Of a DNA stretch of 62,640 nucleotides, positions 4,929 to 59,619 are shown in pieces (position 1 is the first letter of the stretch; the number at the start of each line of letters is the position of its first letter). The notes under the pieces were generated by a model, which saw only the letters and a program-made list of their open reading frames with translations, was not told where the DNA came from and ran no database searches. Source of the DNA: a virus (lineage: Duplodnaviria; Caudoviricetes); the IMG/VR virus record IMGVR_UViG_3300025652_000066, positions 1 through 62,640 of that record; one strand, written 5' to 3'. Position numbers and translations under genes: made by a program.

Positions 4929-5114
4929 ATGCTTGTGTTAACGCGCAAAGAAGGCGAAGTAATTTTAGTAGGAGATAATATAAGGATAACGTTAGTGAGG
5001 TCTACTAACGGACAAGCAAAGATAGGAATCGATGCTCCAGATACCGTAACAATACTCAGGGACGAGCTAACTCATGAATCTACTAAAGATAACGACGGTC
5101 GCGGAAACATTTGA
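4929..5114 (+). CDS. csrA: CsrA/RsmA family RNA-binding translational regulator (copy 1)
   Basis: [10 protein letters not shown]...IGIDAP....ILRDEL; L4, R6, R44 conserved. Confidence 0.92.
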   Translation: MLVLTRKEGEVILVGDNIRITLVRSTNGQAKIGIDAPDTVTILRDELTHESTKDNDGRGNI

Positions 5115-19094: not shown

Positions 19095-22000
19095 CTAGAG
19101 ATCCGGCATTATTTGCTGGACAGGCATTGCCTTATTAAAGTCCGGATCTAAGAACTGTTCTATTGTAGGGCCGAGTAGTGATTTACCTGGGATACTACCG
19201 TACTGGTAATCTTTATACATATCGTACGCGGTCATACCTGGAACGCCTGGAAGACCGGCTCTGAATATACCGTTTACCGTGTAGTCGTATACGCCCCAGT
19301 TAGCTTTTCGTGCGTCTTCTTCGCCGCCATTCATCACCATATCTTTTAAGAAGTCAGCGGCTACCATCACAGGTACGATCATCATGAGATTAGCCACCGA
19401 TGCTGTGTTACCGTTTTTAGCCTCGTGCCATGCACGTTTGAGAATACGATCATGGAATGAATACATGAATGATTTTAAATGGAACGCTAGCATCCAATGA
19501 GGATCTGAAGCCCACAGTGGACGTTGTGACGGATTAGGTCGTAGGATTGATTCATCCACGAATCTAACTATCGCGCTGCGTACTCTGTCGTCTCGTTGCA
19601 TCTCCTCGTACGATGCTTTCTTCCGCTCGCCCCGAGTAAGTAGTTGCAAGCTACCATCTTTGGCAAGCTTGATATCAGCTGGCGCTACATTCAACTCTTC
19701 AAAGTATCTAGCAGAATGCTTATTAGGGTTGTTTTTGTGACGCGCCAGGAACTTAAGGGCTGATGACGTCGCCATTACCCGCGTCATCCGAGTCCAGGCT
19801 TGTAGACCGGTTAGTTTGAAGAAACCCTCATTGATTTTACGAGCTGTACCTCCTAGATACACGCCCCCGTATTCCCAACCGAGTGCTTCGTTCACCACGT
19901 TGTAATCGATGATACCTAGTGATTCCGCTATCTCATGAATCATAGTAGGTTCTGCACTTATCATGCTTTTGATTCCTGACTTGAAGCCTTGCCATGCAAG
20001 GCCAAGGTCACCAGATCTTACAGCGATACCCATCGGATCTATCAATGAAGAGAAGGTAGCACCTACTAATAGGCGTACATTCTGGTACACCATCATAGTA
20101 CCCATACCTTTTTGAAGGTTGGTATTGATAGCTTTACCAGCAGCAGGAAGTGCTAGCCCTGTTTTATTAGATAACCACAAGGCGGTCTTACGACCATGCA
20201 CACCCATCGTGGCATTAACGTAATCTGTTGCTAGCTCAATATCAGCTTCCGTAGCACCTTCTTTCTTCGCTTTAGCAAGCATAGCCGGTAACCACTGCGC
20301 GTCGTTATTCTCATTACCGAAGCGTGTTGTGTACTCTGCTTTCTTAACTGCTAGTCCGATATAGCTATTAAGTACTAACCCGAGATCGTCTGACATAAGG
20401 CTCGCCACGAATGCTTTATCTTTCGTACTACCCTCAGTACGAATGAAGTCAATTAACCGGCGATTCATAAATCGATTAACTGGCGTCGCATCTACTGGAT
20501 TAGGATCATTCTCAATATTACCACCGAAAGCAGGCGTGTCAGCATAACCGTCATTCGCTACGATTCCCTCTACTATCTGGTCAGCAAATTTCTCAGGCGT
20601 AAGAGGCTTCACAGACTTAACGTCTGGGTATTTAGCAAAGATCCGCTCAGACCTAGCTTTGTTAACAATGTCTAGCTCTTTTTTTAGTGCTGCTGCAAAC
20701 TTAGGCTGTAGTATCACAGTCCTTAGCTCTGCGGCATTAGCACCATCCATCTTGTCGATGTCAAATACCCACGGGAAGTATTGCTCGCCTCGATCACCTA
20801 ACTCCACGCCTTTACCTACCATGTAGTCCCGAACCTCACGCATTATCTGGAATACACGTTTAGCGGTCCGCTGTATATCCGCTGGCGCGTTAGACAAGGT
20901 GTCTGGGTTATGTAGTACTTTAAGAACGGCTGCGCCGTGCGCTTGATCTTTATTATTAAAGATACGACGTACTTGAGCATCGAACCCACCACGTTTCATC
21001 GCTTTATCTTGATCCATCGTGTTAGCAACGTTACGTCTACCTGCTTTCACATGAAGCATGTCCGCTATTGCATTCAACGTTGGGATCTTAGTTGCTCTCA
21101 AACGTTCGTCGGAGATGAAGAAAGCACGCTTAGCCTTCCCAAGGATACCTTGAGCAGCACGTTCTTGTTTAGCGATCGCTGCGTCTACCCCTTCAAACTC
21201 TAAGGAACTCATAGCAGGTGTTTCTCTATTAAACTTCTCTCTAAGTATGCTGTCTACCACCTCGAAGCTTTTTAGATTATCGCGTTCTTTATTCTGCTTA
21301 AGTGCCGCGCCGTGCTTTCCATCCATCATAGCCTTATGAGCAGCATCTAGTATTGACTCAAAGCCCTTTTGTAGAGACTCGAAACTAGCTTGTAGTGTAG
21401 GGCCGACTTTGAGCTTACCCGCCTGCCACATTTGAAAAGCAAGCTCAGGCGTCACATCGCCTAGTTTAGAGACTTGGTTCTTGATAGCTGGACTATTCAT
21501 AGCTTGGTCAATAGCCGCGCGTGTTTTCTTGTTCACGTACTGCAGCGAGCTACCGATACCATGCCGAGATAGTTCTCCGAGCTTACGCTCGATGTTAGCT
21601 CGAGCCGCCGCATACAGTGCGAAAGCATTCTCTTTTGTCACTTCAAATACAGTGTCAGCGTCCATGTTTTTTAGCGCTGCTTCTAAGCCTTGAAGCTTTT
21701 CAGAGAATACTGAAGTGAAATCAGCAGTACTAGAAACAAGGCTTTCCGTCATGCCATAGATATTAAATCCAGGAACGCCGAGTCTTGCTGCTAGCTTTTT
21801 AAACATTTGAACAGCCGCATGGAAGAACTTCTCGACCTCTGTACGAGGTGTCGCTGTTTTATCCATCACCCATTTAGATACGTTATCCGCGAAGTATTCT
21901 TCAAAATCTAATAGGTATTTACGCGAGGCTTCTGGAAGGTCTGCAACATTCAAACCATCAAGCCCATTGACAGCGGCAAGTAACGACGCATGTGCTGTCT

Positions 22001-25000
22001 TTTTAGACCTAAGAAGTGCACCGGCAGTGCTACGTCCATGCTTAGCAGACCACGCTTTAAAGTCATTCATGATAGCTGTAGCATCTAGCTTGGAAGCGCT
22101 AAGGGCTAGGCTACGGAATACAACATGGCCAAACTCATGGGCAATGATCTCGTTACGGAGCTTACCTGTTAGACCTGGGTGGATAAACACACGGATCTTA
22201 CCATTGGTTACGCTGGTTACGAATCCGTGCAACGTGCCGTTCTGCATCTTGGCTAAGTAGTCAGTAAAGCCGTTTTGCTTAGCATAAGCCATCGCCTGCT
22301 CAACAGACATAGCTTCAACTACTGTATCGAGATTCAAGTTTTTAGCTAAGGTAGTGAGCGCTGTCTGTAGCTTATTTATTTTAGCTTTTGTATTAAGGTT
22401 CTTTAGCTGCTCAATAGTATTCGACGCTATTGCTTTGACCGCTTCGATAGAGGCAGACTGGGCTGGGGATTCTTTCGATGTGTAGCCGGCTCTAGCAGGC
22501 GCTTCCATCGCTGCTAATGCAGCTGCTGCGTGAGCGCGTTCACTTTCGATTATCTTAAAGAGCCCTGTGCCTTTAGCTTTCGCCGCGCGCGCAGTCTGTG
22601 TCTTAACTAACCGAACTAACCCACCGTCATCGCCCGCCTTTACTAGCGCAGCCACTTTTGCTTTAAACATGCTATTAACTTTATAACGGTCCAAAGCTTC
22701 CTCAGGCTGAACGTCGTCCTCTACTTTCCTAGCCTTCGCTAAATTAGCAGCTTTACTAGCAGCGGCAGTCTCGCCTTGTGCTTTTAGTCTCTCGTTATAA
22801 GCCTTGTCCTTCGCAGAGAGCGTTTTAGGCGCGTTGCCTTTAGCCACTGAGCGCTCAGTTTGCTCCGCTTTTAGCTGCTGTGCTGGCGTCTGAGGAGGGG
22901 TGGCTTTTCTTCTCGCGGCCACACTCTCTGGACTAAGATCAAGTTTACCCCTAGTTGACACTAAACGGGTTGCTTCGCGAGATGCATCTGCTGCTGCGTT
23001 AAGCTGCTCTAACTGCTCTTTGTTCTTAACTACATTAGTGGTGCCTTTATCAACCGCATTAAATAGAGGTTTGTTATACGCCTTGGTGAACTTATTCTGA
23101 AGGTTCTCAAGAGTCTGTACTTTAGTGGTTAAAGCTTTTATTTCTGTATAGCGCTGAGCGTTCTTATTAGCTGGTAAGGCTTCGTTTTTTTCTTCGAGCT
23201 TTCGAATTTTAGCTTTTAGAAACCGTAGTTCGCGTTTGTGCTTAGGAGACACCTGCTCTAAGCTGGCTTCTATTTTAGCCATCGCGTCTTTTCTTGATAT
23301 AGGGCCTGTGTTGCCATGCACTTTTTTAAACATGGCGACAGCGTCAGCAGCAAAACCAGCTGGCACTGCAAGCATTTTCTTCCTCAAATCGAGGAGCTGA
23401 AACAAACGTTTAGAAGCCTTATTCTGCTTAAAAGGATCAGGAACATCCTCGAGAATGTCAATACTAGCTCTTCGTAGGTCTATCAGATCAGTGGCGCTCT
23501 GTTTGTATTTAGTTAGCACTTCACTAGCAGACATTTTTCTTATATCGGATAGCTCTTTCTTGATATTGGCTATAGCTACGGCAGACGCAGAGTATATAGG
23601 ATCAGTCTCTTCGTGCTCGAACACGTTGGCCATATCTTCAGCCTGGGTTGGCGGAACACTGTAACCGTTAATTACTATCGGATTACGGCTTTTGATCTTA
23701 ACATCTTGGTTATTATGCTCTAACCCCTCGCCTTGGATACCGTCAGGTTTGTTTCTAAGGGGCGTGTCTATAGCTTTTCTTTGCGAAGCAACGCGTATCT
23801 CTTCCTTGGATTTCTTAGGTCTTGCTGCCCGCTCTTTTGCCGCTTTGGCCGTTGCCGCTATACGCTTTTCTTGGTCAACTAGAAGAGAGCCTGTATCCGC
23901 GTTGGCTATCGCTGCTTGTGACTTAGCAGACTTTACACCGGCAACAGCTGTCTCATTCTGCGTAATCAACCGATCCATAACTTTACTTGAAGGGCGCTTC
24001 CCTAATTCCATACCTAGGGCTTTGTCTAATGCTTCGCGCGCTTCAATAGCCTTCTCTTCTGCAAACTGTAGTTTCACCAACGCTTGAGTGTACCCGTCAG
24101 ACTCAAACAGCTCAGCGTAAGTTATATTCACGCCTTTGCCTCGATGATGGACAACAGTCGTCGGGCTAATGCTAGGTATCTTATAGCCTTGGTTTAAAAG
24201 CGTAGATAACCCTGTAAGTAGTGATACTTTCGTTTTATCGTATATATTTTTAGAGTCAAAACTAGACTCGTTCTGCATCATGCGGCGGACTAGCGCTGGC
24301 AAATAAAGGTTGAGCGTACTACCATCCTTATCCTGCACGTGAACCGATCTAGAGTTAGCCGTGTCGGTAGTAGCTGGCTTCAGGATAGCCTCTTTATCTA
24401 GGCTTGCATCTATCTCTCTGCTACGTTGCTCTAACGTTTTTGTACTGTAGTCCTTAAGCTTAAGCGCGCCTACTTCGTTTTTAAGCTGGTCTAATTGTTT
24501 TACGATGTCTCCCTGGTTTTCTCCGGCAGAACTGTATGCAGCATTCAGAAATCCAGCAAGGCTATCCTTAGCGGCGACTTCGTCGGCTGCGGCTTTTTTT
24601 TCATTTCCAAGATCGGTTATTGCAAACGACGTGCGTCTTTTAGCTCGTAGCTTCCTAGGATCAGGCGTAGCCCTAAGGTCTTCGCCTGTTAGGTCGTCTT
24701 GCTGTATCGGTGTCATAGCAGCAGGTATCTTGCCTGCTGACCGTAACATGTAAGTGCTCTGTAACCACGCGACTGGGTCGGCGGTTTCTACTCTACTCTG
24801 CTTGGCAAAGGAGGCGGCGATGCTTTGGATCTTACCTTGCAGCTGCTCACCTGAAAAACCCTGCGCTTGTAGCTCGAGTGTAGTAGCCTCAAGGCCATTT
24901 AACACGTTGTAGTCTATATCTGGATTTTGCTTACGTGCAGTACTTATAGCCGTCGTTAGAGATTTTTGGTCTTTTATAGGTAGACCCACGCTGCTTAGTA

Positions 25001-26342
25001 CGTTCTTAGCCTCATGAGTTGTAACCTCTGGGACAGCGAAATTTATGTTCATCGCGTCGGCTACTGCTGCTTCATCTACTACTTCGTCTTGCAGGTCAAT
25101 GTCTTTTACACGCTGCTCATCCTTAGCGTACGCTGATTTTAACTCTTCGCCGAATCCGCCGACGTACTCCTCTGACTCTGCTACCGAGTCATCTAGCTCT
25201 GCTTCATTAGGATCCTGCTTACTCGGTTTCGGCGAAGTGCGTACAGCTGTAGCCGCCTTAATTCTACGGAAGAGATCATCGTATACGTGAGGTTCAACCT
25301 CCCCCGTATACTTGCTACTTACTTCTACTATCGATTGATCGAGGTCGCCTCTAGTTATAAAACCTTGACTGTAATCCTCTATAGCTTGTGACAGTTCGAC
25401 ATTGATATCTGATTTAGCATCATCAGGGGTAAGTGAAGCTGCTGGAGATTCTCGGTTATACTCGTCAGGCGTTACTACAAATGGGTTTTCGGAAGGAGCT
25501 TCGGTAGAGCGGCGAGAAAAAGCACCGCCTGCGCCGCCCATAACACCACCACCTAGTGCACCTAATGCACCAGCTTCAACTAAGCGTCGAGTATTAGCAT
25601 CTCTATTCTCAGGAGCAAGTGCGTCGTAGTTAGGATCAGCAAAGTCTCTAGCACCTAATGCGATAGACTCTTGGATAACTTCTGTTCCACCTTCAACAGC
25701 ACTAGTCAATGCTGCTTTTTGTCCTATGTTAGATAGCCTTGTTCTACCACCTGTTTTACGTAGCAGGGATAAAGGACTTAATAAATCTATGCCACCTGCG
25801 GCAATACCAGCACCAAGCGCTGTACCAGGCGCTTCAATCCCACTTTCTTGTTCAATCTCTTTGAATATACCACCGGCCTGCATACCAGCATTAGGTATAG
25901 TTGCACCGACGCCAGCGCCTATTGCTAAGCCTCGTGATCTATTAGTTTGGGCAAAACCTCTACCGATTGCGCCACCCATGACGCCACCTGCTAACATCGT
26001 AGCCGCAGTAGGTACGAGCGAGCCTAAGCCGCCGAGGGCCCAATCCATTACGTCAGTTAGGTTATTGACATCGTAGATACTTTCTACGCGACCAGCTAGC
26101 TCAGGTGCGGCGGCTTCTTGATTGTTTCTGTCGTAGCCTTGATCACCGAATTGCTGGAGCTGTTCGTTACCTATCATGCTTCCAGCTAGGGAGGCGGCTC
26201 CATAGAGGTCAGCTTGCAATCCGTTACCGGCTCGCTGCACGCCTTTTTGGAACTCGTTAAGTGTTGGCCCTGCTGCATCCTCGCCGGCAGGCTGTAACCC
26301 ATTTGGGTTAGAGTAATGTACTTGACGTAGTCCTTGCGCCAT
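19095..26342 (-). CDS. giant internal virion (DNA ejection) protein with zincin-like motif
   Basis: 2415 aa; Gly/Ala-rich hydrophobic N-terminus; IAHEFGH...EEYFAD; helical C-terminal domain. Confidence 0.75.
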   Translation of the reverse strand: MAQGLRQVHYSNPNGLQPAGEDAAGPTLNEFQKGVQRAGNGLQADLYGAASLAGSMIGNEQLQQFGDQGYDRNNQEAAAPELAGRVESIYDVNNLTDVMDWALGGLGSLVPTAATMLAGGVMGGAIGRGFAQTNRSRGLAIGAGVGATIPNAGMQAGGIFKEIEQESGIEAPGTALGAGIAAGGIDLLSPLSLLRKTGGRTRLSNIGQKAALTSAVEGGTEVIQESIALGARDFADPNYDALAPENRDANTRRLVEAGALGALGGGVMGGAGGAFSRRSTEAPSENPFVVTPDEYNRESPAASLTPDDAKSDINVELSQAIEDYSQGFITRGDLDQSIVEVSSKYTGEVEPHVYDDLFRRIKAATAVRTSPKPSKQDPNEAELDDSVAESEEYVGGFGEELKSAYAKDEQRVKDIDLQDEVVDEAAVADAMNINFAVPEVTTHEAKNVLSSVGLPIKDQKSLTTAISTARKQNPDIDYNVLNGLEATTLELQAQGFSGEQLQGKIQSIAASFAKQSRVETADPVAWLQSTYMLRSAGKIPAAMTPIQQDDLTGEDLRATPDPRKLRAKRRTSFAITDLGNEKKAAADEVAAKDSLAGFLNAAYSSAGENQGDIVKQLDQLKNEVGALKLKDYSTKTLEQRSREIDASLDKEAILKPATTDTANSRSVHVQDKDGSTLNLYLPALVRRMMQNESSFDSKNIYDKTKVSLLTGLSTLLNQGYKIPSISPTTVVHHRGKGVNITYAELFESDGYTQALVKLQFAEEKAIEAREALDKALGMELGKRPSSKVMDRLITQNETAVAGVKSAKSQAAIANADTGSLLVDQEKRIAATAKAAKERAARPKKSKEEIRVASQRKAIDTPLRNKPDGIQGEGLEHNNQDVKIKSRNPIVINGYSVPPTQAEDMANVFEHEETDPIYSASAVAIANIKKELSDIRKMSASEVLTKYKQSATDLIDLRRASIDILEDVPDPFKQNKASKRLFQLLDLRKKMLAVPAGFAADAVAMFKKVHGNTGPISRKDAMAKIEASLEQVSPKHKRELRFLKAKIRKLEEKNEALPANKNAQRYTEIKALTTKVQTLENLQNKFTKAYNKPLFNAVDKGTTNVVKNKEQLEQLNAAADASREATRLVSTRGKLDLSPESVAARRKATPPQTPAQQLKAEQTERSVAKGNAPKTLSAKDKAYNERLKAQGETAAASKAANLAKARKVEDDVQPEEALDRYKVNSMFKAKVAALVKAGDDGGLVRLVKTQTARAAKAKGTGLFKIIESERAHAAAALAAMEAPARAGYTSKESPAQSASIEAVKAIASNTIEQLKNLNTKAKINKLQTALTTLAKNLNLDTVVEAMSVEQAMAYAKQNGFTDYLAKMQNGTLHGFVTSVTNGKIRVFIHPGLTGKLRNEIIAHEFGHVVFRSLALSASKLDATAIMNDFKAWSAKHGRSTAGALLRSKKTAHASLLAAVNGLDGLNVADLPEASRKYLLDFEEYFADNVSKWVMDKTATPRTEVEKFFHAAVQMFKKLAARLGVPGFNIYGMTESLVSSTADFTSVFSEKLQGLEAALKNMDADTVFEVTKENAFALYAAARANIERKLGELSRHGIGSSLQYVNKKTRAAIDQAMNSPAIKNQVSKLGDVTPELAFQMWQAGKLKVGPTLQASFESLQKGFESILDAAHKAMMDGKHGAALKQNKERDNLKSFEVVDSILREKFNRETPAMSSLEFEGVDAAIAKQERAAQGILGKAKRAFFISDERLRATKIPTLNAIADMLHVKAGRRNVANTMDQDKAMKRGGFDAQVRRIFNNKDQAHGAAVLKVLHNPDTLSNAPADIQRTAKRVFQIMREVRDYMVGKGVELGDRGEQYFPWVFDIDKMDGANAAELRTVILQPKFAAALKKELDIVNKARSERIFAKYPDVKSVKPLTPEKFADQIVEGIVANDGYADTPAFGGNIENDPNPVDATPVNRFMNRRLIDFIRTEGSTKDKAFVASLMSDDLGLVLNSYIGLAVKKAEYTTRFGNENNDAQWLPAMLAKAKKEGATEADIELATDYVNATMGVHGRKTALWLSNKTGLALPAAGKAINTNLQKGMGTMMVYQNVRLLVGATFSSLIDPMGIAVRSGDLGLAWQGFKSGIKSMISAEPTMIHEIAESLGIIDYNVVNEALGWEYGGVYLGGTARKINEGFFKLTGLQAWTRMTRVMATSSALKFLARHKNNPNKHSARYFEELNVAPADIKLAKDGSLQLLTRGERKKASYEEMQRDDRVRSAIVRFVDESILRPNPSQRPLWASDPHWMLAFHLKSFMYSFHDRILKRAWHEAKNGNTASVANLMMIVPVMVAADFLKDMVMNGGEEDARKANWGVYDYTVNGIFRAGLPGVPGMTAYDMYKDYQYGSIPGKSLLGPTIEQFLDPDFNKAMPVQQIMPDL

Positions 26343-28454: not shown

Positions 28455-30359
28455 TTATCCTGTGCTCTCAAGAGCTGCTGTAGTTATAGTGTTAGTCGCG
28501 CTAGCTGCTGAGCTAGCTAAGCCTGCCATAGCATTCGCTACGCCAACTGCTGTTGAGCCACCGGAAGCGATGCCTCGTTGCGCTATCTCTCTAATACCTA
28601 TTTCTGATTGTAGTGTTGCGCTAAGACTTGCTTTAGCGGCATCTAGATCCAGAGCGCTATGTTTGTATTTAGCATTGAAGGTGTCTAACGTTATTGCTTG
28701 GTACGCTTTGTAGGCTTCTATCCGAGCGCGATAAGCTTCGCTATCAGCACCGAATGTTGTTTTCGCAGCGTCTAGTTCTGCGCCGTAGGCGGATAGTTCA
28801 GCGCGATACTCATCTATGATGTTTTTGTTATGGTCAGAGATGGCTCGTGAATGTGCTATCTCTACGTCTGCTATAGACTTAGCAGCGTTTACTTCTTGAG
28901 CGTAAGCTTGGACTTGTGTTGAGTAGGCTCTGACTTTAGCTTCGTCCCCTCCGATAGCGGCGGTATAGACGTCAAACTCGGCTTTCTTAGCTCCGACTTG
29001 GGCAACGTAGGCTCTGACTTGCTCTCCATAGATTTCAACCTTTAGTTTCTCTAAGTTAGCTGCTGTAGACACACCTTGTAACTCGGCTACGTAGTTATCT
29101 ATCTTGGTAGATTCCGCTTTGATTAAAGCGCTGTAGACATCAACGTCGATCTTCTCAATGTTCTTACTAAGTTCTGCTGCACGTATTTCCGCCTCAAAGA
29201 TAGTGATGTCAGCTAGTGCTGCTTTTAACTGCGACTCATAGATCTGTGTTTGGATCCCCGCCAACTGCAACTCTGCTTTATAGCGTTCTAATCTAGCGTT
29301 GTACTCAGTGACTAGGGATTCAGCTAGCTGCTTACTGTATTGCAGGGATTGGCCATTGATCTGAACTAACTGCTGTGCGTATTGCACAGCTGTACCAAGT
29401 AAACCCATATGTAATGTAGAGCTTAGGTTCATAATAAACTGTGCGTGCTCTTGCTCTAGCTTGGCTCTAGCGATAGCTGTTTCAGCAGCTGTACTCGCTA
29501 AGTTTTTAGCAGTAGCTTGTTGGATCTGATTAAGCCCAGCTGATATAGCGGATGGAGGAAGTTGGTATCCTCGCTTAGACATGCCTTCAAGGAGATCTTC
29601 ACTAGCACGTTGTGCTTCTGCTTCTGTACGATCGCGGGCTCTGTCGTATATTTGTTGTTCTATAACGTCGGACATTGCTGTACCGCCGTTCATACCTGCG
29701 GCTATCTTAGCTTCAAGCTGTGACATCGCAGTTGAGTATTCAGGAGCGTATTTGCTCATCCACCCATTAACTACGTCGTCAAGAAATGCGCGCATTTGCG
29801 GAACTGCGTTGTCATATGTAGAGCGAGTTAGTGCTAGTACATCGCCTATTTCACCAGGATCAGTAGCATCAGTATCAACAGGTACGAAGTCAGGGATAGT
29901 TATATCCGGAGCATTTGGGATATTAACTTCTGATATGACAGGTGTAGCCGGTATGTTTAAGTCAGGAGCGGCAGGAATATCTAGCTCAGTATCTACCGTA
30001 GGCGCAGTTTCGCTAAAGGGCGATACATCAAAAACAGGGGTAGCTTGACTAAATAAACTCGACGTGTCTAGTGTGGCTGGCGCACTAGAAAACGTAGGTA
30101 TAGTGGGGATGTAGAGCGATTCTAGGTCAGTCAGCGACGCGTTATTAGTTGGCGCATTATAGACAGCCGAGAACACAGGTGGTGGCGCAACAGCCCCAGG
30201 TATTGGCGTACTATTTGTGAATGAAAGGTTCGCCTCGATAGCATAAGGTATATAACCACCTTGTGCTCGACTTGCAGCACTAAGTGCTTGTGCTACCGCT
30301 GAGGCTGCATACGTCTGCTGGTTGGCTATTATGCTGTTGATCTGATCAGTAATCGCCAT
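28455..30359 (-). CDS. virion protein with long Tyr/Ala/Glu coiled-coil repeats
   Basis: Pro-rich N-terminus, RGYQLPP motif, Y.A.V.A helical repeats. Confidence 0.65.
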   Translation of the reverse strand: MAITDQINSIIANQQTYAASAVAQALSAASRAQGGYIPYAIEANLSFTNSTPIPGAVAPPPVFSAVYNAPTNNASLTDLESLYIPTIPTFSSAPATLDTSSLFSQATPVFDVSPFSETAPTVDTELDIPAAPDLNIPATPVISEVNIPNAPDITIPDFVPVDTDATDPGEIGDVLALTRSTYDNAVPQMRAFLDDVVNGWMSKYAPEYSTAMSQLEAKIAAGMNGGTAMSDVIEQQIYDRARDRTEAEAQRASEDLLEGMSKRGYQLPPSAISAGLNQIQQATAKNLASTAAETAIARAKLEQEHAQFIMNLSSTLHMGLLGTAVQYAQQLVQINGQSLQYSKQLAESLVTEYNARLERYKAELQLAGIQTQIYESQLKAALADITIFEAEIRAAELSKNIEKIDVDVYSALIKAESTKIDNYVAELQGVSTAANLEKLKVEIYGEQVRAYVAQVGAKKAEFDVYTAAIGGDEAKVRAYSTQVQAYAQEVNAAKSIADVEIAHSRAISDHNKNIIDEYRAELSAYGAELDAAKTTFGADSEAYRARIEAYKAYQAITLDTFNAKYKHSALDLDAAKASLSATLQSEIGIREIAQRGIASGGSTAVGVANAMAGLASSAASATNTITTAALESTG

Positions 30360-30389
30360 CCTTGGCTCCTAGTGTTTCATATTCTCTAA

Positions 30390-37635: not shown

Positions 37636-38019
37636 CTACTCTACTGCTTCTTCGCCGATTGTAAGCCGAACGTCGGCCCACACTTCATCGCGTTCCCCAG
37701 CAAAGACTTGGAATCCTAAATCTTTTGACATGACGACTGCGTCTGGTTTACCAGACCCTGTGAAGTCACCACGCTTGTTGCGAGCGACCATAGAGCGGAT
37801 CTGTTTTGCTAAGGCTGTTGTACGTTCTGGCCCTTCAAGTTGTACAGCAATTTTTGTCTCTTCAGCATCAAGGACTTCGCCTTGTACTAAATGAGCTCCG
37901 GCAGCTAGACAATCTTTAACGGCGGCAGCAGGTACATCAACTGGGGTGTTCTTTTTAAACTCGAAAGTGTAACCAACTAGGGTTACAACGAGCTTATCTA
38001 CAGGCATTTGTAGTTTCAT
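37636..38019 (-). CDS. conserved hypothetical protein
   Basis: DFTGSGKP...ERDEVW. Confidence 0.6.
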   Translation of the reverse strand: MKLQMPVDKLVVTLVGYTFEFKKNTPVDVPAAAVKDCLAAGAHLVQGEVLDAEETKIAVQLEGPERTTALAKQIRSMVARNKRGDFTGSGKPDAVVMSKDLGFQVFAGERDEVWADVRLTIGEEAVE

Positions 38020-38101
38020 TATTTATTTCCTAAAGTGAGTGGTGTCCCCGAAGGGGGAAGGGAGTGACTAAACTCCCTTCCTAGTCAACCACTGCCGGTG
38101 G

Positions 38102-38494
38102 TTAAACTGGTTGTACTTCGTTTGCACGTCCACCTACGATGTACGAAACAAGCACGTAACCATCACCGACTGTAGGCGTACCAGTGTTCGTGATGTTCAA
38201 AACAAGTGCATCTGTTACAGAGAAAGCCGCGCCTGCAGGTACTAGGTTTGTTCCACCTGCAACTTTAGCGTCAACGTTTGCTGCATACTTATCACCAGTA
38301 GTCTTGTCACCTAAGTCAAGTACAGCTGATGAAGCAGAGTCAAATGCATTTACGATTACGACTGCGCCGCCAGTTACGACTGCGCCGCCAGGGATATCAA
38401 TTAACTCTACGCTTACGCCATCAGCGTCTGCGAAGGTAAAATTGACCTTAGCTGTTAGTGGCCATTGACGACCACCATCTTTTACGATTGCCAT
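38102..38494 (-). CDS. putative capsid decoration protein
   Basis: Directly after MCP; IPGGAVVTGG...AFDS...LDLGD. Confidence 0.6.
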   Translation of the reverse strand: MAIVKDGGRQWPLTAKVNFTFADADGVSVELIDIPGGAVVTGGAVVIVNAFDSASSAVLDLGDKTTGDKYAANVDAKVAGGTNLVPAGAAFSVTDALVLNITNTGTPTVGDGYVLVSYIVGGRANEVQPV

Positions 38495-38518
38495 GATTTA
38501 TTTCCTCTTAAGCAATAT

Positions 38519-38542
38519 GATGGGGCGGCGAACCGCCCCGTC
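38519..38542 (-). terminator. UUCG-tetraloop hairpin after MCP (terminator/stabiliser)
   Basis: GACGGGGCGG-TTCG-CCGCCCCATC on the minus strand; weak U tract. Confidence 0.55.
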
Positions 38543-38545
38543 GGA

Positions 38546-39655
38546 TTAGATAGCAGTATCGATAGCGATAACACCGAAATCTTGTTCAGTACCAGAGATC
38601 TGACTATGGAACACAGGTTTCTTCATACCGATGATTTTGCCGGTAGAAATAGCTTGTTGATTGTCATAATCGAACATCTTCTCGATCCACTCAGGTGAAC
38701 CAATATCAGCGAATGCCATAGCTTGAGCACCACACATTAGGACACGTTGGCCGTCGACGTTAGAACCTGCACCCCATTTAGATCCAGCTAGTGCACCTTT
38801 AGTGTTGTACACGTGACGGTATTCGTAGATCGCTAAGCCATCAACATAGATAACCGAAGCGCCTTTGAATAACGGGTTAGATGAGCTACGTGGTAACGCG
38901 TCTTTCCATGCAGCCATAAAGTCTGGGTCAGCTTTAAGCTTCGCAATACCTTGAGGAGTCATGAATACGTTGTACACTTCCATACCATCACCACCACGGA
39001 TTGGGCGGATGAAGTTGTCTTTAGCGTACGCTTTGGCTTCTACCAACATACGCCATGAAGGAGTATCAGTAGAGACTAACGATGCGTTAGAGGCATGGCT
39101 GAAATCTTTAGCAGTGTTGTTCCATGTAAGAACGCGATCTGTAGTTGGAGCAGATACATCACCAGAGAAATCTAAGTTTACGAAATCAGAACCAACACGA
39201 TCACGACCGTTAGTGTGCTTGCTATAAGCAACACCAGACATTGTCAAGAACGCTAATTGGTCGCAACGATCAGCAAGCCAGTAAGACAAGTTGTCGCGTG
39301 AAGTTTCGCGGAAGTTGATGATTGAACGTTGGTCAGCCATACGGCCTTCGTGGCGTGTAGCGTGACGTAGTTGATCAAGCTGAACAACCATGTCGTATGA
39401 TTTACCAGCTTCTTCATTACCTTCTAATGTGCGATCCCCTGCGATACCATCGCCTTCAAGATCTGCTACTAGGGTAATTACTGCACGAGCGCCTTTTTCG
39501 GACTTAGTCAACTCAGTGATTCGTTGAATCATTGCGTTGTTACCAGTACCCATAAAGCGGTTCATGAAAGAGTTGTTACGCGCTGCTTTCCAAAGATCTT
39601 TAGACCAGACGGTCTTTTCTTCGTTTGTAAGCAGGGCAAAGTTACTTAATGCCAT
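38546..39655 (-). CDS. major capsid protein, N4 gp56-like
   Basis: IQRITEL.K..KG.RAVITL..DLEGDG..GD..LEGNEE, DQLRHA, NPLFKG, CGAQA, DFGVIA. Confidence 0.9.
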   Translation of the reverse strand: MALSNFALLTNEEKTVWSKDLWKAARNNSFMNRFMGTGNNAMIQRITELTKSEKGARAVITLVADLEGDGIAGDRTLEGNEEAGKSYDMVVQLDQLRHATRHEGRMADQRSIINFRETSRDNLSYWLADRCDQLAFLTMSGVAYSKHTNGRDRVGSDFVNLDFSGDVSAPTTDRVLTWNNTAKDFSHASNASLVSTDTPSWRMLVEAKAYAKDNFIRPIRGGDGMEVYNVFMTPQGIAKLKADPDFMAAWKDALPRSSSNPLFKGASVIYVDGLAIYEYRHVYNTKGALAGSKWGAGSNVDGQRVLMCGAQAMAFADIGSPEWIEKMFDYDNQQAISTGKIIGMKKPVFHSQISGTEQDFGVIAIDTAI

Positions 39656-39658
39656 GTC

Positions 39659-39854
39659 GAATATTCCTTTATTCGTCGTATTAAAATCCCAAAACTATGG
39701 GAATGATTGGTCAAACGTTCTGAACCTATCGCGTCAGATAACTTTCGCTTAATACGGTTATTTATCGAGGGTGGCGATCCTCGCTCTATCTATCGCTATA
39801 GAGGTCGAAGTATGGATCTAGCGCATCCTTGCGCATTTGATACATCCTTGTATC
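39659..39854 (-). promoter_or_regulatory. MCP 5' leader with three CsrA-type AGGA hairpins
   Basis: GATACA-AGGA-TGTATC (39839-39854), GCGCA-AGGA-TGCGC (39821-39834), GAATA-AAGGAA-TATTC over the RBS (39659-39674). Confidence 0.75.
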
Positions 39855-39870
39855 GCAGAACCATGTGAGC

Positions 39871-39900
39871 ATGGTACCACAATACAAGGATTATAGTCAA
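39871..39900 (-). promoter_or_regulatory. sigma70-type promoter for MCP
   Basis: TTGACT-N18-TACCAT with TG extension. Confidence 0.6.
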
Positions 39901-40749
39901 CTAGTTGACGTCACCACGCATTTTCCGCTTGGTTGATTCTGGTAACGCGTCGAACTCTTCCTCAGTCAGATCATTAACATCAGGGAGTACATCTTTTTTA
40001 CCTGAGTTATCACTATCAAACCCTACCTTATCTAAACCAGGTGGTTGCTTATTAGCGGTATCTACGTTCTTCTTCACGTCCGTTTTTCGCTTCTGGGCTG
40101 GCTCTGCAGGTTCTGCAGCTGCTACACCTTTAGGCATGACGTAACGTACCGCATCTTGTAGTGCTGTAGAAGGTGCTGTACCTGACGAGACAAACGCGCG
40201 TTGTAGACGAAGTACTTCGTCTACCGAGTCTTGGTCATAGGTATCGGAGTCAGGGTCAAGATTAGGGTACTGGGTATTCAATGCTTCGATAGTAGAATCA
40301 AGACGGATAGACTCGCGAGTAGACTCGCTCGTACGTTGCGAACGTTGTTCGTGCTCTGCATCACGTTCTGCTCGTTCCATCTGACGGATCTGCTTATTGT
40401 AGCCAGCCGCAGCTGCTGTATCACCATCTGCTCTAGCTTGCTCTAGCTTAAGGTCTAAGTCTGCATAAGGATCAGCTTCTTCTTTCTGCTCTTCCTTAGG
40501 TGACATGCTAGCACGCAACTCAGCCAGTTCACGCTCCGCTTCTCTTGCACGGTTTGCTGCTGAGTCGTAACGATGCTTTGGGATCATCCCATTAGATCGG
40601 GGTGCTTCCTCTTCTTCCTCTTCAGGCGCTTCAGCTTCTTCCTCTTCAGGCGCTTCCGCTTCTTCTAAGCCTTCTTCCTCTTCTTCTTCGACCGCTTGAT
40701 CTTCAGGCAACAAGATGTCATCTTCGTCTTCCATGGCAGTGTTTGACAT
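39901..40749 (-). CDS. capsid scaffolding protein
   Basis: Very acidic N-terminus, MIPKHRYD, coiled coil, EEEFDALPE..KRKMRG; between portal and MCP. Confidence 0.8.
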   Translation of the reverse strand: MSNTAMEDEDDILLPEDQAVEEEEEEGLEEAEAPEEEEAEAPEEEEEEAPRSNGMIPKHRYDSAANRAREAERELAELRASMSPKEEQKEEADPYADLDLKLEQARADGDTAAAAGYNKQIRQMERAERDAEHEQRSQRTSESTRESIRLDSTIEALNTQYPNLDPDSDTYDQDSVDEVLRLQRAFVSSGTAPSTALQDAVRYVMPKGVAAAEPAEPAQKRKTDVKKNVDTANKQPPGLDKVGFDSDNSGKKDVLPDVNDLTEEEFDALPESTKRKMRGDVN

Positions 40750-40760
40750 TGTAAATCCTC

Positions 40761-42908
40761 CTAGGATTCTTTAGTTTTAGTTTTGGCTTTTTCTTTATCA
40801 GCTCGCTCTGCTTGTTCTCGCTTCGCTTCGCCGTCTTGGATGGTAGCCAGCATCTTTATCTTTTGCTGGCCGACTGCTTTTTCTCGTTCTAGCTGAAGCT
40901 GCATGGCTTGTTTTTCTCTCGCCATCCACAACTCTGCATCTTGCTTCTCACGTGCCATTTCCAACTCCGCTGCTATCTTAGCGTGTTGTAATCTTAGCTC
41001 GCCTTGCCCGTCATCTTGCTGGTCTTTTTGCACTTCGGCCATTTCTTTACGGGCTCTTACTGCGTTGAGCGCTGCAGTAGATGATTTAACCTGGGTATCC
41101 GCTTCTTTGTCTTTATTTTCAAGTTCGAGTTTCTGCATCTCAAGCTGCTGCATTTTTTGCTCGGCTTCAGTTGCTTCACCGCCGCCTTGTAGTTCTTTAA
41201 TGCGTGCTGCTATTTCTGTTTTACGAGACAGATGACTATTCTCAATTAACACATCGTCAGGAATAGCGATGCCTAGTTGACGTAGCTCAAGTGCTTCTTG
41301 GAACTGCGTAGTCTCGAAGTCATCTCTTGCAGGAACGTTCGTAACAACAATGCCGTATTCACCTAGCGTTAGATCATTAATTAGCTGACCTTCTGGTGTC
41401 ATCTGGTTTACAGCCATCTGCTCAGTCTGTGCTGTTAAGTCACGACCGACGACTTGGATAACACGTTCTTCTGTGTAATAAGTCTGAACTAAATTTAAGA
41501 TCCGCTTAGCCAACATGTGGCGTGTTTTGGTTAGGTTATCTAGTGGTTTCGCTAAGTTGACAGCGCCAGCAGATTGTTTTGCTTTAATCGCTTTTGCTGC
41601 TACGTCGGCTCTATCCATGCCGCGCTGTGAATCAGAGATACCTGATATTTCTTTAATGAACTCATCTGACTTATACGTTACACGATCGAGGCCAGTTGGC
41701 ACTTGGTTCGGGCTGATCTTCTCTAGATCGTTTACATCTGTTAGCTCAAACACAACACCTGTTTCAGCGCCGCGTTCTTCCAGATCTTCTACATCCATGT
41801 TCTGTAGTGAGCCGGCTTTAACTTTGTAACCACTGTTTGCTGTGGTGTTGATAATGTGTAGTTCTTGACTTGACGCTTTGTTGAGCTGGTCTTGTGGAGA
41901 AAGGAGATTCTCGACTAAGCCAATCGTCCGTCCGTTACGAAGGTATGGGAAGTAAGGCACGATAGTAAAGTAGGTGTAAGGACTCCACTCGTCGAACAGC
42001 ACAATGTCATCAGCTGTTACCGTCCAGCGGATAGATTCCGCTAAGCGCTTAACCATTGACAAGCCTGCTTTGTTAGCAACATCTTGGCGTTTTGCACTGT
42101 CCCAGTTATCTGGAACCATACGCATGTCGCCTGCTTCGATGTCTACGAACCACCACGCATTTCGGATCTTACGGTATTGTCTTTCGATAATACGCACTTT
42201 ACGGCGTGTATTATCATTCTCTCTGTCACCTTCTGGAACTTGAAACGAGCCAGCAAACGTACCGTGGTAGCGTTCGGCTGAGTCGTACCCAAACTGGAAC
42301 TCGCTAGCCACTTTGGTCTTTAGGGTATCGGCGTGCTTTTTACTATAGAGTAGCTCGATGTCATTTATCGTTAGCCACTTAGTGATGAACACTTCTTTCC
42401 AGGTATCGGGATCGTACTCGTCTGCATCAGGATCTATAACGACATTACGGGGGTTTATACGCTTAAGGCGTACCTCGCCTTGCATGTGATCGTCAAAAGC
42501 AGCACGTACATCGAAGAAGCCACGACTTGTTATGAACCCATCGTTGGAGACTTCTGATTCAATATCATCGAGCTTGTTACTGTTGGTGATCTGAATGTAA
42601 ACTTTAGTGAGCGCGTCGGCGACTTCTTGTGTGCCATCTTTCAAGGGGCGAAAGGATACGTCTGCTCTATTACGCAGTTGCTCGCCCATAACCACAGCCA
42701 TAGTAGACATGATTTTATTTATGGTGAGTACTGGCTTGCCTTGCGATTCTAGTTTCTGGCGGACAGCTTCGTCCCACTGCTCTCCAGCAAAATACTTATC
42801 GCACAGGTCAGCCTTCTTGACGAAGTCAAGGTGGCCGTTGTCTCTCGCGTATGAGTATCGTTCGAACTGTTCGCTAGCTATTTCATAATCGGTCGGCATC
42901 CTTGCCAT
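40761..42908 (-). CDS. portal protein (N4/P22-like podovirus type)
   Basis: YFAGEQW...GKPVLTINKI, IDPDA.EYD, SPQDQLNK, C-terminal helical barrel. Confidence 0.9.
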   Translation of the reverse strand: MARMPTDYEIASEQFERYSYARDNGHLDFVKKADLCDKYFAGEQWDEAVRQKLESQGKPVLTINKIMSTMAVVMGEQLRNRADVSFRPLKDGTQEVADALTKVYIQITNSNKLDDIESEVSNDGFITSRGFFDVRAAFDDHMQGEVRLKRINPRNVVIDPDADEYDPDTWKEVFITKWLTINDIELLYSKKHADTLKTKVASEFQFGYDSAERYHGTFAGSFQVPEGDRENDNTRRKVRIIERQYRKIRNAWWFVDIEAGDMRMVPDNWDSAKRQDVANKAGLSMVKRLAESIRWTVTADDIVLFDEWSPYTYFTIVPYFPYLRNGRTIGLVENLLSPQDQLNKASSQELHIINTTANSGYKVKAGSLQNMDVEDLEERGAETGVVFELTDVNDLEKISPNQVPTGLDRVTYKSDEFIKEISGISDSQRGMDRADVAAKAIKAKQSAGAVNLAKPLDNLTKTRHMLAKRILNLVQTYYTEERVIQVVGRDLTAQTEQMAVNQMTPEGQLINDLTLGEYGIVVTNVPARDDFETTQFQEALELRQLGIAIPDDVLIENSHLSRKTEIAARIKELQGGGEATEAEQKMQQLEMQKLELENKDKEADTQVKSSTAALNAVRARKEMAEVQKDQQDDGQGELRLQHAKIAAELEMAREKQDAELWMAREKQAMQLQLEREKAVGQQKIKMLATIQDGEAKREQAERADKEKAKTKTKES

Positions 42909-42914
42909 CCTTGG
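42895..42914 (-). promoter_or_regulatory. two tandem CsrA-type hairpins across the portal start codon
   Basis: CCA-AGGA-TGG then GGCA-AGGA-TGCC. Confidence 0.7.
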
Positions 42915-49150: not shown

Positions 49151-49153
49151 GGC

Positions 49154-49169
49154 TACTCATCCTTGAGTA
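49154..49169 (-). promoter_or_regulatory. CsrA-type hairpin on terS RBS
   Basis: TACTCA-AGGA-TGAGTA, 3 nt before ATG. Confidence 0.7.
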
Positions 49170-49247
49170 ATTGACTTAGAGCATAGTATAGCAGCTTTGT
49201 AAAGCCTGTCCATGTAACGACGTGTGGACGACCATGTAGCGGCGTTG

Positions 49248-54374: not shown

Positions 54375-54610
54375 AAGCAGTCATCAAACGATTCCCCCAA
54401 GACAGCAACTGGATGGCAGATCGCGAAAAAGATAACTCTTCCGTGTTTATGTACGGAGTCGCACGGAAAGATAACTCTTCCGTGTTTATGTACGGAGTCG
54501 CACAGGAAGAAAGCGGCGAGTATATAAGACTATTCATAACCGACACTACGTACCGAGTACATCACCACAGACTTGCTTTAATAATTAACCCCCCTGCTGT
54601 ACGCAGATAA
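54371..54610 (+). CDS. KAxIKR-family small protein 6 with internal 13 aa duplication
   Basis: [21 protein letters not shown] x2. Confidence 0.65.
54428..54503 (+). repeat. 39 bp-period tandem duplication
   Basis: AAAGATAACTCTTCCGTGTTTATGTACGGAGTCGCAC at 54428 and 54467. Confidence 0.9.
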
Positions 54611-54647
54611 CACGACGCCCAATACTGGGCCGTTTAGGAGAACAGCC

Positions 54648-54827
54648 ATGCTAGTATTAACTCGAAAAGAAGGCGAAACCATCCATATTGGTAGCGATAT
54701 TGTGGTAAATGTATTACAATTACGCGGTAATCAAGTCAAGATAGGTATCGAAGCACCCAAGATAGTCGACGTGCACCGAGGCGAGATTTATGCGGCTATA
54801 AAGGCACAACTCCTAAACACACACTAA
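54648..54827 (+). CDS. csrA: CsrA/RsmA family regulator (copy 2; not in ORF track)
   Basis: [60 protein letters not shown]4, R6, H43-R44, EIY conserved; AGGAG RBS. Confidence 0.93.
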
Positions 54828-54849
54828 CACCAACATGCAAGGATGCGTA

Positions 54850-58864: not shown

Positions 58865-58880
58865 TTTGCAAGGATGCAAA
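58865..58880 (+). promoter_or_regulatory. CsrA-type hairpin on exonuclease RBS
   Basis: TTTGCA-AGGA-TGCAAA, 4 nt before ATG 58885. Confidence 0.7.
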
Positions 58881-58884
58881 AAAC

Positions 58885-59619
58885 ATGGCTACACAAATCA
58901 ATGCCGGTTCCTTCTCACGCATGTCTGTCTATGCAGAATGCCCTCAACGTGCAAAATTACAGTATGTAGATAAGATCAAGGAGATGGAGCGACCTGCTCC
59001 ACCTCCTGGTCAAGAGCATGCTAACGATAGAGGATCACGAGTTCATGACGAAGCAGAAAAATATGTCAAAGACGAACGCGACGACCTTGTCATGGAATTG
59101 CTCAATTTCAAAGACGAACTGGAACACCTTAAATCCCTTTATACAGATGGAGTGGTCGAAACCGAACAACTATGGACGTTCGACGATACTTGGACGCCGT
59201 CTGATCCAGATGATTATCCCAACATCTGGCTACGAGTCATCTGCGACGGGTTGGTATTTCTCGATGATGAAACAGCTGTGGTTATTGATTATAAGACAGG
59301 CAAAAGAGTCAGAAACGAAGTAAAGCACGCACAACAAGGGCAGCTCTACATGCTGTCCACCTTCATTCGTTATCCAAAGTTACAAACAATCACCGTTGAG
59401 TTCTGGTATTTAGACCAGGATGAAATGTATCAAATGACCTATACCCGAGAACAAGGTATGCGGTTCTTCAAATTATGGAACGACAAGATGTTAAAAATGA
59501 CATCTGACGTGACCTTTGAAGCTAAACCTTCTACGTATACCTGTAGATTCTGCCCTTTCCAAGATGGCAAGAACAAGTGGCTCACCGGTACAGGTGACTG
59601 CACCAGAAACCCGACGTGA
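58885..59619 (+). CDS. PD-(D/E)XK exonuclease, RecB/Cas4-like
   Basis: SFSR...CP, RGS.VH, D...IDYKTGK, Q.QLY, C.FCPF...C. Confidence 0.85.
   Translation: MATQINAGSFSRMSVYAECPQRAKLQYVDKIKEMERPAPPPGQEHANDRGSRVHDEAEKYVKDERDDLVMELLNFKDELEHLKSLYTDGVVETEQLWTFDDTWTPSDPDDYPNIWLRVICDGLVFLDDETAVVIDYKTGKRVRNEVKHAQQGQLYMLSTFIRYPKLQTITVEFWYLDQDEMYQMTYTREQGMRFFKLWNDKMLKMTSDVTFEAKPSTYTCRFCPFQDGKNKWLTGTGDCTRNPT

Follow-up and report, generated by a model that had tools for sequence, protein, structure and literature searches.

A candidate CsrA docking site at the 5′ end of the capsid mRNA leader of a phage with two csrA genes

What is the role of a long structured leader ahead of a phage capsid gene? The question is raised by the IMG/VR virus record IMGVR_UViG_3300025652_000066 (62,640 bp, completeness estimate 74%), which was analysed over its whole length and is called the window here. 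Between a putative scaffold gene and the major capsid protein (MCP) gene, a gap of 245 nt (39656-39900, minus strand) holds a promoter and about 210 nt of structured 5′ leader. An earlier reading made from the letters of the DNA, referred to below as the sequence-only reading, had described this leader as built like a segment of the sponge RNAs CsrB and RsmZ and had proposed that it binds the bacterial translational regulator CsrA. The answer that we favour, with somewhat better than even confidence, is that the 5′ end of the leader docks one CsrA dimer, probably phage-encoded, as a 5′ clamp like that on flhDC mRNA and within a phage-wide CsrA regulon.

The promoter is of the sigma70 type and occupies positions 39871-39900 on the minus strand, with the hexamers where the sequence-only reading had placed them (TTGACT-N18-TACCAT, 39900-39871). 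It consists of a −35 box TTGACT (39900-39895), an 18-nt spacer, a TG at 39879-39878 and a −10 box TACCAT (39876-39871), and a consensus scan gave 9 of 12 matches plus the TG extension. The hexamers alone are not above chance, as two promoter-like sites were found in 38000-41000 against 3.9 ± 2.4 in shuffled sequences. Far better support for a promoter comes from its conserved position. A search of IMG/VR gave 32 related capsid loci, of which 31 had their upstream regions compared (L029, a match without a capsid start, was left out); with near-duplicates dropped, the comparison set consisted of 20 distinct loci and the window. When these regions were compared by eye, a TTGAC[T/A] box directly after the upstream stop codon was found to recur in the relatives, with TGn + [T/G]AC[C/T]AT, or TAnnnT, about 17 nt downstream. 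The position of the box is kept in L004, L005/6, L007, L009, L016, L023, L027, L030, L032 and L034. Judging from hexamers, spacing and conservation together, the gap holds a real sigma70-type promoter, with a predicted transcription start near A39864.

Parts of the region are present in four metatranscriptome runs, each from a different study, and the assembled contigs of these runs were compared with the window. Contigs with 100% identity begin within the capsid gene and extend as far as 39846 (X1) and 39841 (X2), and a further one (X4) spans 39528-39704. Since X1 and X2 are continuous across the capsid start, the leader, including the second of the hairpins described below, is joined to the capsid coding start in RNA libraries. 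Both contigs, from two studies, have no loose end and fall 18-23 nt short of reaching the predicted start, which is a weak hint that a 5′ end lies nearby. Positions 39847-39931 are covered by no contig of the four runs, and this uncovered part proves nothing; the coverage of 39847-42000 amounts to one 215-nt piece (X3) and a 36-nt partial, mismatched fragment (X1, 40654-40689).

The first transcribed bases carry two hairpins with AGGA in the loop, both of which the sequence-only reading had recognized. [quoted passage not shown] By our own arithmetic, both strands of 62.6 kb together should contain about 0.03 exact matches. The relaxed motif does not exceed chance: with one mismatch or fewer allowed, two matches were found against 0.84 expected, and 24 of 100 shuffles reached two. 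Site 2 (GCGCA-AGGA-UGCGC, 39834-39821, minus strand, GGA at 39828-39826) follows with a spacing of 19 nt from GGA to GGA, so that the two GGAs stand at about +18 and +37 of the predicted start. A third hairpin, CGAAUA-AAGGAA-UAUUCG, covers the ribosome site of the capsid gene (39675-39658, minus strand, GGA at 39667-39665) and ends two bases before the AUG at 39655. A GGA hairpin is thus found where the sequence-only reading had put a third AGGA hairpin, with a loop of six nucleotides, AAGGAA, in place of an AGGA tetraloop. The match to the consensus is 12 of 12 positions for site 1, 9 of 12 for site 2 and about 6 of 12 for the ribosome-site loop, the latter two counted by hand.

The 261-nt leader is predicted to fold with a z-score of −5.66 and its 216-nt promoter-initiated version with one of −3.16. 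In RNA folded from 39865, both AGGA loops are predicted to belong to a small Y-shaped domain, with the 5′ end paired into its base, and the ribosome-site loop is exposed alongside them. Three of the five GGAs in the leader of about 210 nt are exposed in this way and two are paired, one in the hairpin P2 of the leader core described below and one in a terminator-like stem. With GGA in the loops, a match to the SELEX consensus, a spacing within 10-63 nt and cognate CsrA genes in the same genome, the 5′ hairpins have the sequence and geometry of a CsrA site of the kind found in mRNAs.

The CsrA genes were found by a six-frame search of the window with the Pfam family PF02599 (family cut-off 27 bits). 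Two intact genes were detected that the sequence-only reading had missed, both in plus-strand blocks on the replication side: csrA-1 (54648-54827, plus strand, 59 amino acids, 85.6 bits) and csrA-2 (4929-5114, plus strand, 61 amino acids, 71.5 bits). Both products align along their length to solved CsrA/RsmE structures, CsrA-1 with residues 1-54 to E. coli CsrA 1y00 (E = 1e-15), where the HR of VHREEIY is kept, and CsrA-2 to PDB entry 1vpz (E = 1.9e-9). Other conserved CsrA residues (L2, L4 and R6) are also important. The arginine at the R44 position is kept in both phage proteins, and an R44A mutant is described as altering the RNA-binding surface (excerpts of PMC7652899). The Shine-Dalgarno (SD) sequence of csrA-1 itself lies inside a hairpin, GUUU-AGGA-GAAC (54632-54643, plus strand). 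An IMG/VR search with CsrA-1 gave 21 loci, the best with 64% identity and none from a close relative. In a search of 5.8 billion proteins the exact CsrA-1 occurred on 15 contigs, the largest of 67,732 bp, and nothing else was closer than 68%; a fuller genome of the window phage is therefore present in public data. Just upstream of csrA-1, inside a doubtful open reading frame (ORF) of 107 amino acids, two tandem copies of a 39-bp unit (97% matches) were observed at 54428-54508.

Hairpins like those of the capsid leader are in excess throughout the window. The motif CAAGGATG occurs 13 times against 1.44-1.49 expected, a number reached in 0 of 100 and 0 of 200 shuffles. Hairpins of the form xCA-NGGA-UGx (stem of at least 3, G.U allowed) number 16 against 1.97 ± 1.42, and NGGA tetraloops on stems of at least 5 number 21 against 9.95 ± 3.06, with 0 of 100 shuffles reaching either count. 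Fifteen of the 16 xCA-NGGA-UGx hairpins lie on the strand of the surrounding genes, as assigned by a simple rule from the ORF map, and ten of these 15 fall within −1 to +21 nt of the start codon of a frame with at least 45 codons. The pair in the capsid leader is the only part of the set that lies in a leader away from the start of a long ORF; three more hairpins are internal to genes.

At the portal start, two overlapping CAAGGAUG hairpins, CCA-AGGA-UGG and UGGCA-AGGA-UGCCG, were found at 42894-42914 (minus strand). UUACUCA-AGGA-UGAGUAG (49153-49170, minus strand) stands 9 nt before the AUG of a 174-amino-acid ORF upstream of the large terminase gene, and in the gene that immediately follows csrA-1 an in-frame AUG comes 6 nt after AUGCA-AGGA-UGCGU (54835-54848, plus strand). 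The AUG of a 244-amino-acid ORF at 58885 is preceded at 10 nt by UUUGCA-AGGA-UGCAAA (58865-58880, plus strand). The starts of a 634-amino-acid and a 124-amino-acid ORF have GGAGCCAAGGAUGGCGAU in common, and each AUG is covered by GCCA-AGGA-UGGC (30355-30366 and 18585-18574, both minus strand). The start of a 150-amino-acid virion protein also carries an xCA-NGGA-UGx hairpin. No such excess was seen in csrA-negative relatives, with 2 hairpins against 3.04 expected in G001 (95% complete) and 2 against 2.67 in KPP25 (50 kb). The two PF02599 proteins and the strand-biased excess, mostly at translation starts, make CsrA binding to the leader much more credible than it was in the sequence-only reading, and its credibility is raised further by the promoter conserved in relatives and by the RNA-library contigs that join the leader to the MCP start.

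From these features we infer how the leader might act, including which CsrA binds and in which direction the effect runs. In RNA initiated at the promoter, the first 50 nt or so would fold into a Y-shaped domain with two arms, each presenting AGGA in a loop closed by CA/UG, the type of site bound with high affinity by CsrA and RsmE. The domain would be a docking site for one dimer of the CsrA family, and its most likely binder would be one of the two phage paralogs from the replication-side block. The leader would then be one part of a phage-wide CsrA regulon, in which some ten further translation starts of the phage have the same hairpin type on them or beside them. Held close to the capsid mRNA's 5′ end, the clamp would tune stability, translation or both, and CsrA would at the same time be retained on the late message of highest abundance; an effect of the 5′ clamp on stability or translation is the version that we rank first. 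The model is E. coli flhDC mRNA, which CsrA bound at two sites near the 5′ end shields from RNase E (Yakhnin 2013, via excerpts of PMC7652899). Both leaders have two CsrA-type sites far from the ribosome site, here in the first 45 nt or so of about 200. The differences are that the gene here is a phage capsid gene, that the binder is likely phage-encoded and that the predicted 5′ end is already base-paired.

The bridging range of a CsrA dimer is 10-63 nt with an optimum around 18 nt (excerpts of PMC7652899). The distal GGAs, at 19 nt, are near this optimum, and one dimer should therefore take both of them rather than bridge to the ribosome site. This bears on the first of two proposals of the sequence-only reading, in which a dimer anchored on the distal hairpins extends to the ribosome-site hairpin and, as in glgC, stops translation of the capsid gene. 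The resemblance to glgC-type repression lies in a GGA hairpin upstream combined with a GGA at the SD sequence, here in the loop at 39675-39658, and this hairpin is common to L005/6, which also has site 2. However, the ribosome-site GGA is 161 and 180 nt beyond the distal GGAs, against a tested range of up to 63 nt, and the upstream sites number two adjacent ones against one in glgC (excerpts of PMC7652899). The structured core between the sites could perhaps shorten the distance in space. Nevertheless, the two distal sites stand at an ideal distance from one another and would occupy a single dimer on both its faces, the AAGGAA loop without CA/UG closure is by our count a poor consensus match, and repression of the highest-copy protein is not an obvious design. 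We therefore regard bridging repression as quite improbable.

The second proposal was that the leader acts as a sponge and timer. Its main job would be CsrA titration, the abundant capsid mRNA removing one dimer per copy, with a switch-like release of the CsrA-occluded starts of the portal, terminase-side and other genes. In its favour, the tandem pair is of the high-affinity type at optimal spacing, and the ten or so other phage starts with the same site would be the repressed targets. A precedent exists in the Salmonella fim leader, where an mRNA 5′ untranslated region acts as a CsrA antagonist (excerpts of PMC6844306, citing Sterzenbach 2013). In principle, a short leader RNA could be released at the terminator-like hairpin UCCCA-UAGUUU-UGGGA (39702-39687, minus strand), which is weak and is followed by UUUUAAU; L004 has a similar one, and in other relatives the hairpin lacks the U run or is itself missing. 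Known sponge RNAs carry many more GGA sites. The leader shares GGA loop hairpins and the idea of an abundant RNA holding CsrA with CsrB, CsrC, RsmX, RsmY, RsmZ and RsmV and with the fim 5′ untranslated region (excerpts of PMC6844306), but it is part of an mRNA and exposes only three GGAs in about 210 nt, only two of them strong. The tandem pair is also missing in most relatives, and the effect would rest on one dimer per mRNA.

Covariance models give the same picture. A search of the whole window gave no Rfam match at gathering score, and the best local match to the sponge clan (CL00106), 17 nt of site 1 aligned with RsmV, stands at 11.5 bits (E = 0.41), where the gathering score is 100. Having neither the GGA repeats nor the Rfam match, the leader is not a member of the CsrB/RsmZ sponge family. 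The likeness to a CsrB/RsmZ segment drawn by the sequence-only reading holds for the first 45 nt or so and fails for the remainder, which consists of a three-hairpin core with no exposed GGA. Titration as the main job of the leader is thus unlikely. The same low confidence is attached to a larger joint claim, a self-contained Csr circuit in which two viral CsrAs act on about ten starts with the capsid-leader tandem site as a built-in antagonist. In this circuit the CsrAs would occupy starts that include those of the portal gene, the terminase-side ORF, several virion protein genes and the gene that follows csrA-1, and a flood of capsid mRNA would drain them, release late-gene translation and set the timing and stoichiometry of assembly.

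The hairpins could also work without any CsrA. Resembling SD sequences, they would then retain 30S subunits or ribosomes close to the 5′ end as a stabiliser, standby site or decoy, or site 1 would be the SD sequence of an upstream ORF. SD-like 5′ stabilisers occur in other bacteria, and CAAGGA is a usual SD context in this phage. At AUG 39836 a possible upstream ORF of 16 codons (39786-39836, minus strand) begins, for which AAGGA in site 1 would serve as the SD sequence at 8-nt spacing. However, this ORF is not conserved, and L004 is without the whole segment. Neither the CA/UG closing pairs nor the exact 12-mer match is explained in this way, nor is the presence of the excess in a phage with two csrA genes but not in csrA-negative relatives. 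A role without CsrA is accordingly rather unlikely in our estimate.

A different kind of structure overlaps both the promoter and site 1. The promoter spacer and −10 box are complementary to hairpin 1, and together they make a long imperfect hairpin of about 29 bp (39837-39900, minus strand), whose 5′ arm consists of the spacer and −10 box and whose 3′ arm consists of the first transcribed bases, including site 1. By this model, the long hairpin would be confined to read-through RNA from the upstream gene; site 1 would be hidden in such transcripts and exposed in promoter-initiated ones. Three G.U pairs in the window's hairpin lie on the sense strand, and we read the hairpin as a probable RNA element of portal-scaffold read-through transcripts. 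A long hairpin of unrelated sequence stands at the exact same place in L004, L005, L007 and L009, and an ordinary terminator replaces it in the more distant relatives L008, L012, L014, L017, L032 and KPP25. Carrying a −10 box in its 5′ arm and kept as a structure despite unrelated sequences, the hairpin may be a processing or punctuation element. A whole-window inverted-repeat scan for long hairpins at other genes scored G.T as a mismatch, missed the capsid hairpin itself and is uninformative.

These observations suggest one more explanation, in which the duplex at 39900-39837 in portal-scaffold read-through RNA is cut or protects a 3′ end, and the GGA loops are by-products. The recurrence of the hairpin at the same place, the canonical terminators in more distant relatives and the G.U pairs that point to sense RNA all fit. 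Hairpin 2, however, lies outside the long hairpin, and L004, L007 and L009 keep the long hairpin without a GGA loop, so the two features are separable. The genome-wide hairpin set is also left unexplained. As an account of the GGA loops, processing or punctuation is very improbable; it can coexist with CsrA docking.

Comparison with relatives provides evidence both for and against docking. In L005/L006, whose capsid is 87% identical, GCACA-GGGA-UGUGC stands at the position of site 2, with one compensatory change of a stem pair and an A to G change in the loop that the consensus permits; the ribosome-site hairpin is identical, and the portal start of L005 carries GGCA-CGGA-UGCC. At the ribosome site L004 has AUAUA-GGAA-UAUAU, and L007 and L009 have no hairpin. 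Hairpins of the xCA-NGGA-UGx type are absent throughout the contigs of L004, L007 and L009. The CsrA-type hairpins are, on this comparison, lineage-specific, and their sites appear to travel together between genomes as the parts of one system would. PF02599 was also absent from the records L016, L034, L023 and L011, and the L026 provirus gave one match below threshold, at 21 bits. The whole genome of KPP25 has no PF02599 match.

Several points weigh against docking. Both 5′ hairpins are missing in L004 (the closest relative, with a capsid 93% identical), L007, L009, L008, L074 and KPP25, so that by sequence comparison they are dispensable for such a leader. PF02599 is absent from L004, L005, L007, L009, L008 and L074, although these contigs are 7-27 kb long and 12-42% complete and the absence is hence uninformative. 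The long hairpin would bury site 1 in read-through RNA. The stems of sites 1 and 2 have 5-6 bp, and SELEX ligands mostly have four or fewer contiguous pairs, with very stable stems possibly disfavouring binding (excerpts of PMC7652899). CAAGGA is a common SD context of the window phage, and part of the excess may reflect ribosome sites displayed in loops. No excess of these hairpins was seen in PSTCR8lys and phi297, two unrelated temperate phages that are csrA-positive; csrA carriage alone is therefore not predictive of such sites, and the controls indicate that the pattern belongs to the window phage and not to csrA-carrying phages generally. The RNA-library contigs cannot prove transcription, strand, start or level, and DNA carry-over is possible. 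Finally, docking on the leader is a prediction from sequence and fold.

The csrA genes of phages are already known, having been reported in 30 of 2517 phage genomes (about 1%), including Bcep22, DC1 and GP4 (Sobrero and Valverde 2020, excerpts of PMC7366521), and knock-down of csrA in coliphage PTXU04 led to smaller plaques (Adler 2025, excerpts of PMC11879866). Bcep22, DC1 and GP4 belong to the same capsid family as the window phage, with 31-33% identity. No RNA target or mechanism of a phage CsrA is named in the available excerpts of these two papers or in the titles and abstracts of the literature found. In contrast to the phages of that literature, the window has two paralogs together with predicted cis sites on the phage's own mRNAs. 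What appears to be new is that a viral capsid leader bears a cis element of the CsrA type in a genome that also has its own CsrA pair and matching sites. The closest named relatives, KPP25 and phiR18 (Kochitakasuvirus), share the gene order portal, unknown ORF and capsid; KPP25 differs in having no PF02599 match, no hairpin excess and a terminator instead of GGA hairpins ahead of its capsid leader. The window supplies a testable target list for a viral CsrA, with 16 hairpins, the capsid-leader tandem site and two paralogs. If binding is true, this would be a virus that uses a bacterial global translational regulator on its own messages and not only against its host, and the leader would offer a compact natural tandem site of high affinity.

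The further stems that the sequence-only reading had mentioned after the first two hairpins are present and form the three-hairpin core. P1 (CUCUAU[AGCGAUAG]AUAGAG, 39784-39803, minus strand) has a counterpart at its position in all ten aligned leaders, with different stems and an RCGAUA-like loop. P2 (CGAGG[AUCGCCAC]CCUCG, 39766-39783, minus strand), in which a GGA is paired, and P3 (UCUGA[CGCGAUAGGU]UCAGA, 39719-39738, minus strand), whose loop resembles that of P1, are likewise present in 10 of 10. The ten leaders are those of L004, L005, L007, L008, L009, L014, L016, L017, L023 and L074. Between phages the stems vary and the loops are conserved; the RCGAUA-type loops of P1 and P3 are alike and co-vary, and in the RNAalifold consensus of P2 three of the five pairs show double changes that preserve the pair. 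The core had no match in the Rfam search of the window at gathering score. P1-P2-P3 is thus a conserved RNA motif ahead of the capsid gene across this phage group and outside Rfam.

A kissing interaction of the P2 loop (AUCGC) with the P1 and P3 loops (GCGAU) fits the window; it is not kept in L005, L007, L016 and L017 and was dropped. An alternative fold is available in 39766-39810 (minus strand), where the 5′ arm of P2 can pair through its CGAG with a conserved UUCG that stands upstream of P1, and P2 itself pairs an SD-like GAGGA with an anti-SD-like CCCUC. On this model the UUCG/P2 arrangement could be a translational switch. Pattern scans with the leader core gave one new true leader (L074), one copy of P2 only (L080) and three identical unrelated matches. 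In L080, a different IMG/VR contig, at about 390-450, a P2-like hairpin and UAAAAUAAUCG stand some 20 nt before the SD sequence of a different gene, and P2 may therefore be a modular element.

From approximately 49.7 kb down to 7.3 kb, the minus strand carries the large terminase, portal, major head protein and virion protein genes, and the plus-strand blocks at both ends of the window carry replication-type genes such as one for a primase-like protein. The MCP gene (38546-39655, minus strand) encodes 369 amino acids and matches the major head protein family phrog_334 (E = 9e-88); its product is 56% identical to the major head protein of the Pseudomonas phages KPP25 and phiR18 and 31-33% to those of Bcep22, DC1 and GP4. 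The upstream ORF (39901-40749, minus strand, 282 amino acids) has no PHROG match and is named a putative scaffolding protein solely by its place between portal and capsid; its C-terminal stretch is kept in relatives. A DNA search with 39400-40100 against named phages gave no match. The capsid was also searched for in bacterial genomes as a lead to a host, where the matches were one Comamonas prophage (50%) and a fragment only. The runs that contain the window sequence are labelled freshwater metagenomes. A virion protein of 2415 amino acids is encoded at 19095-26342 (minus strand), with a match to phrog_30152 at its C-terminal end; the csrA-carrying coliphage PTXU04 has a polyvalent protein of 2198 amino acids near its csrA (excerpts of PMC11879866).

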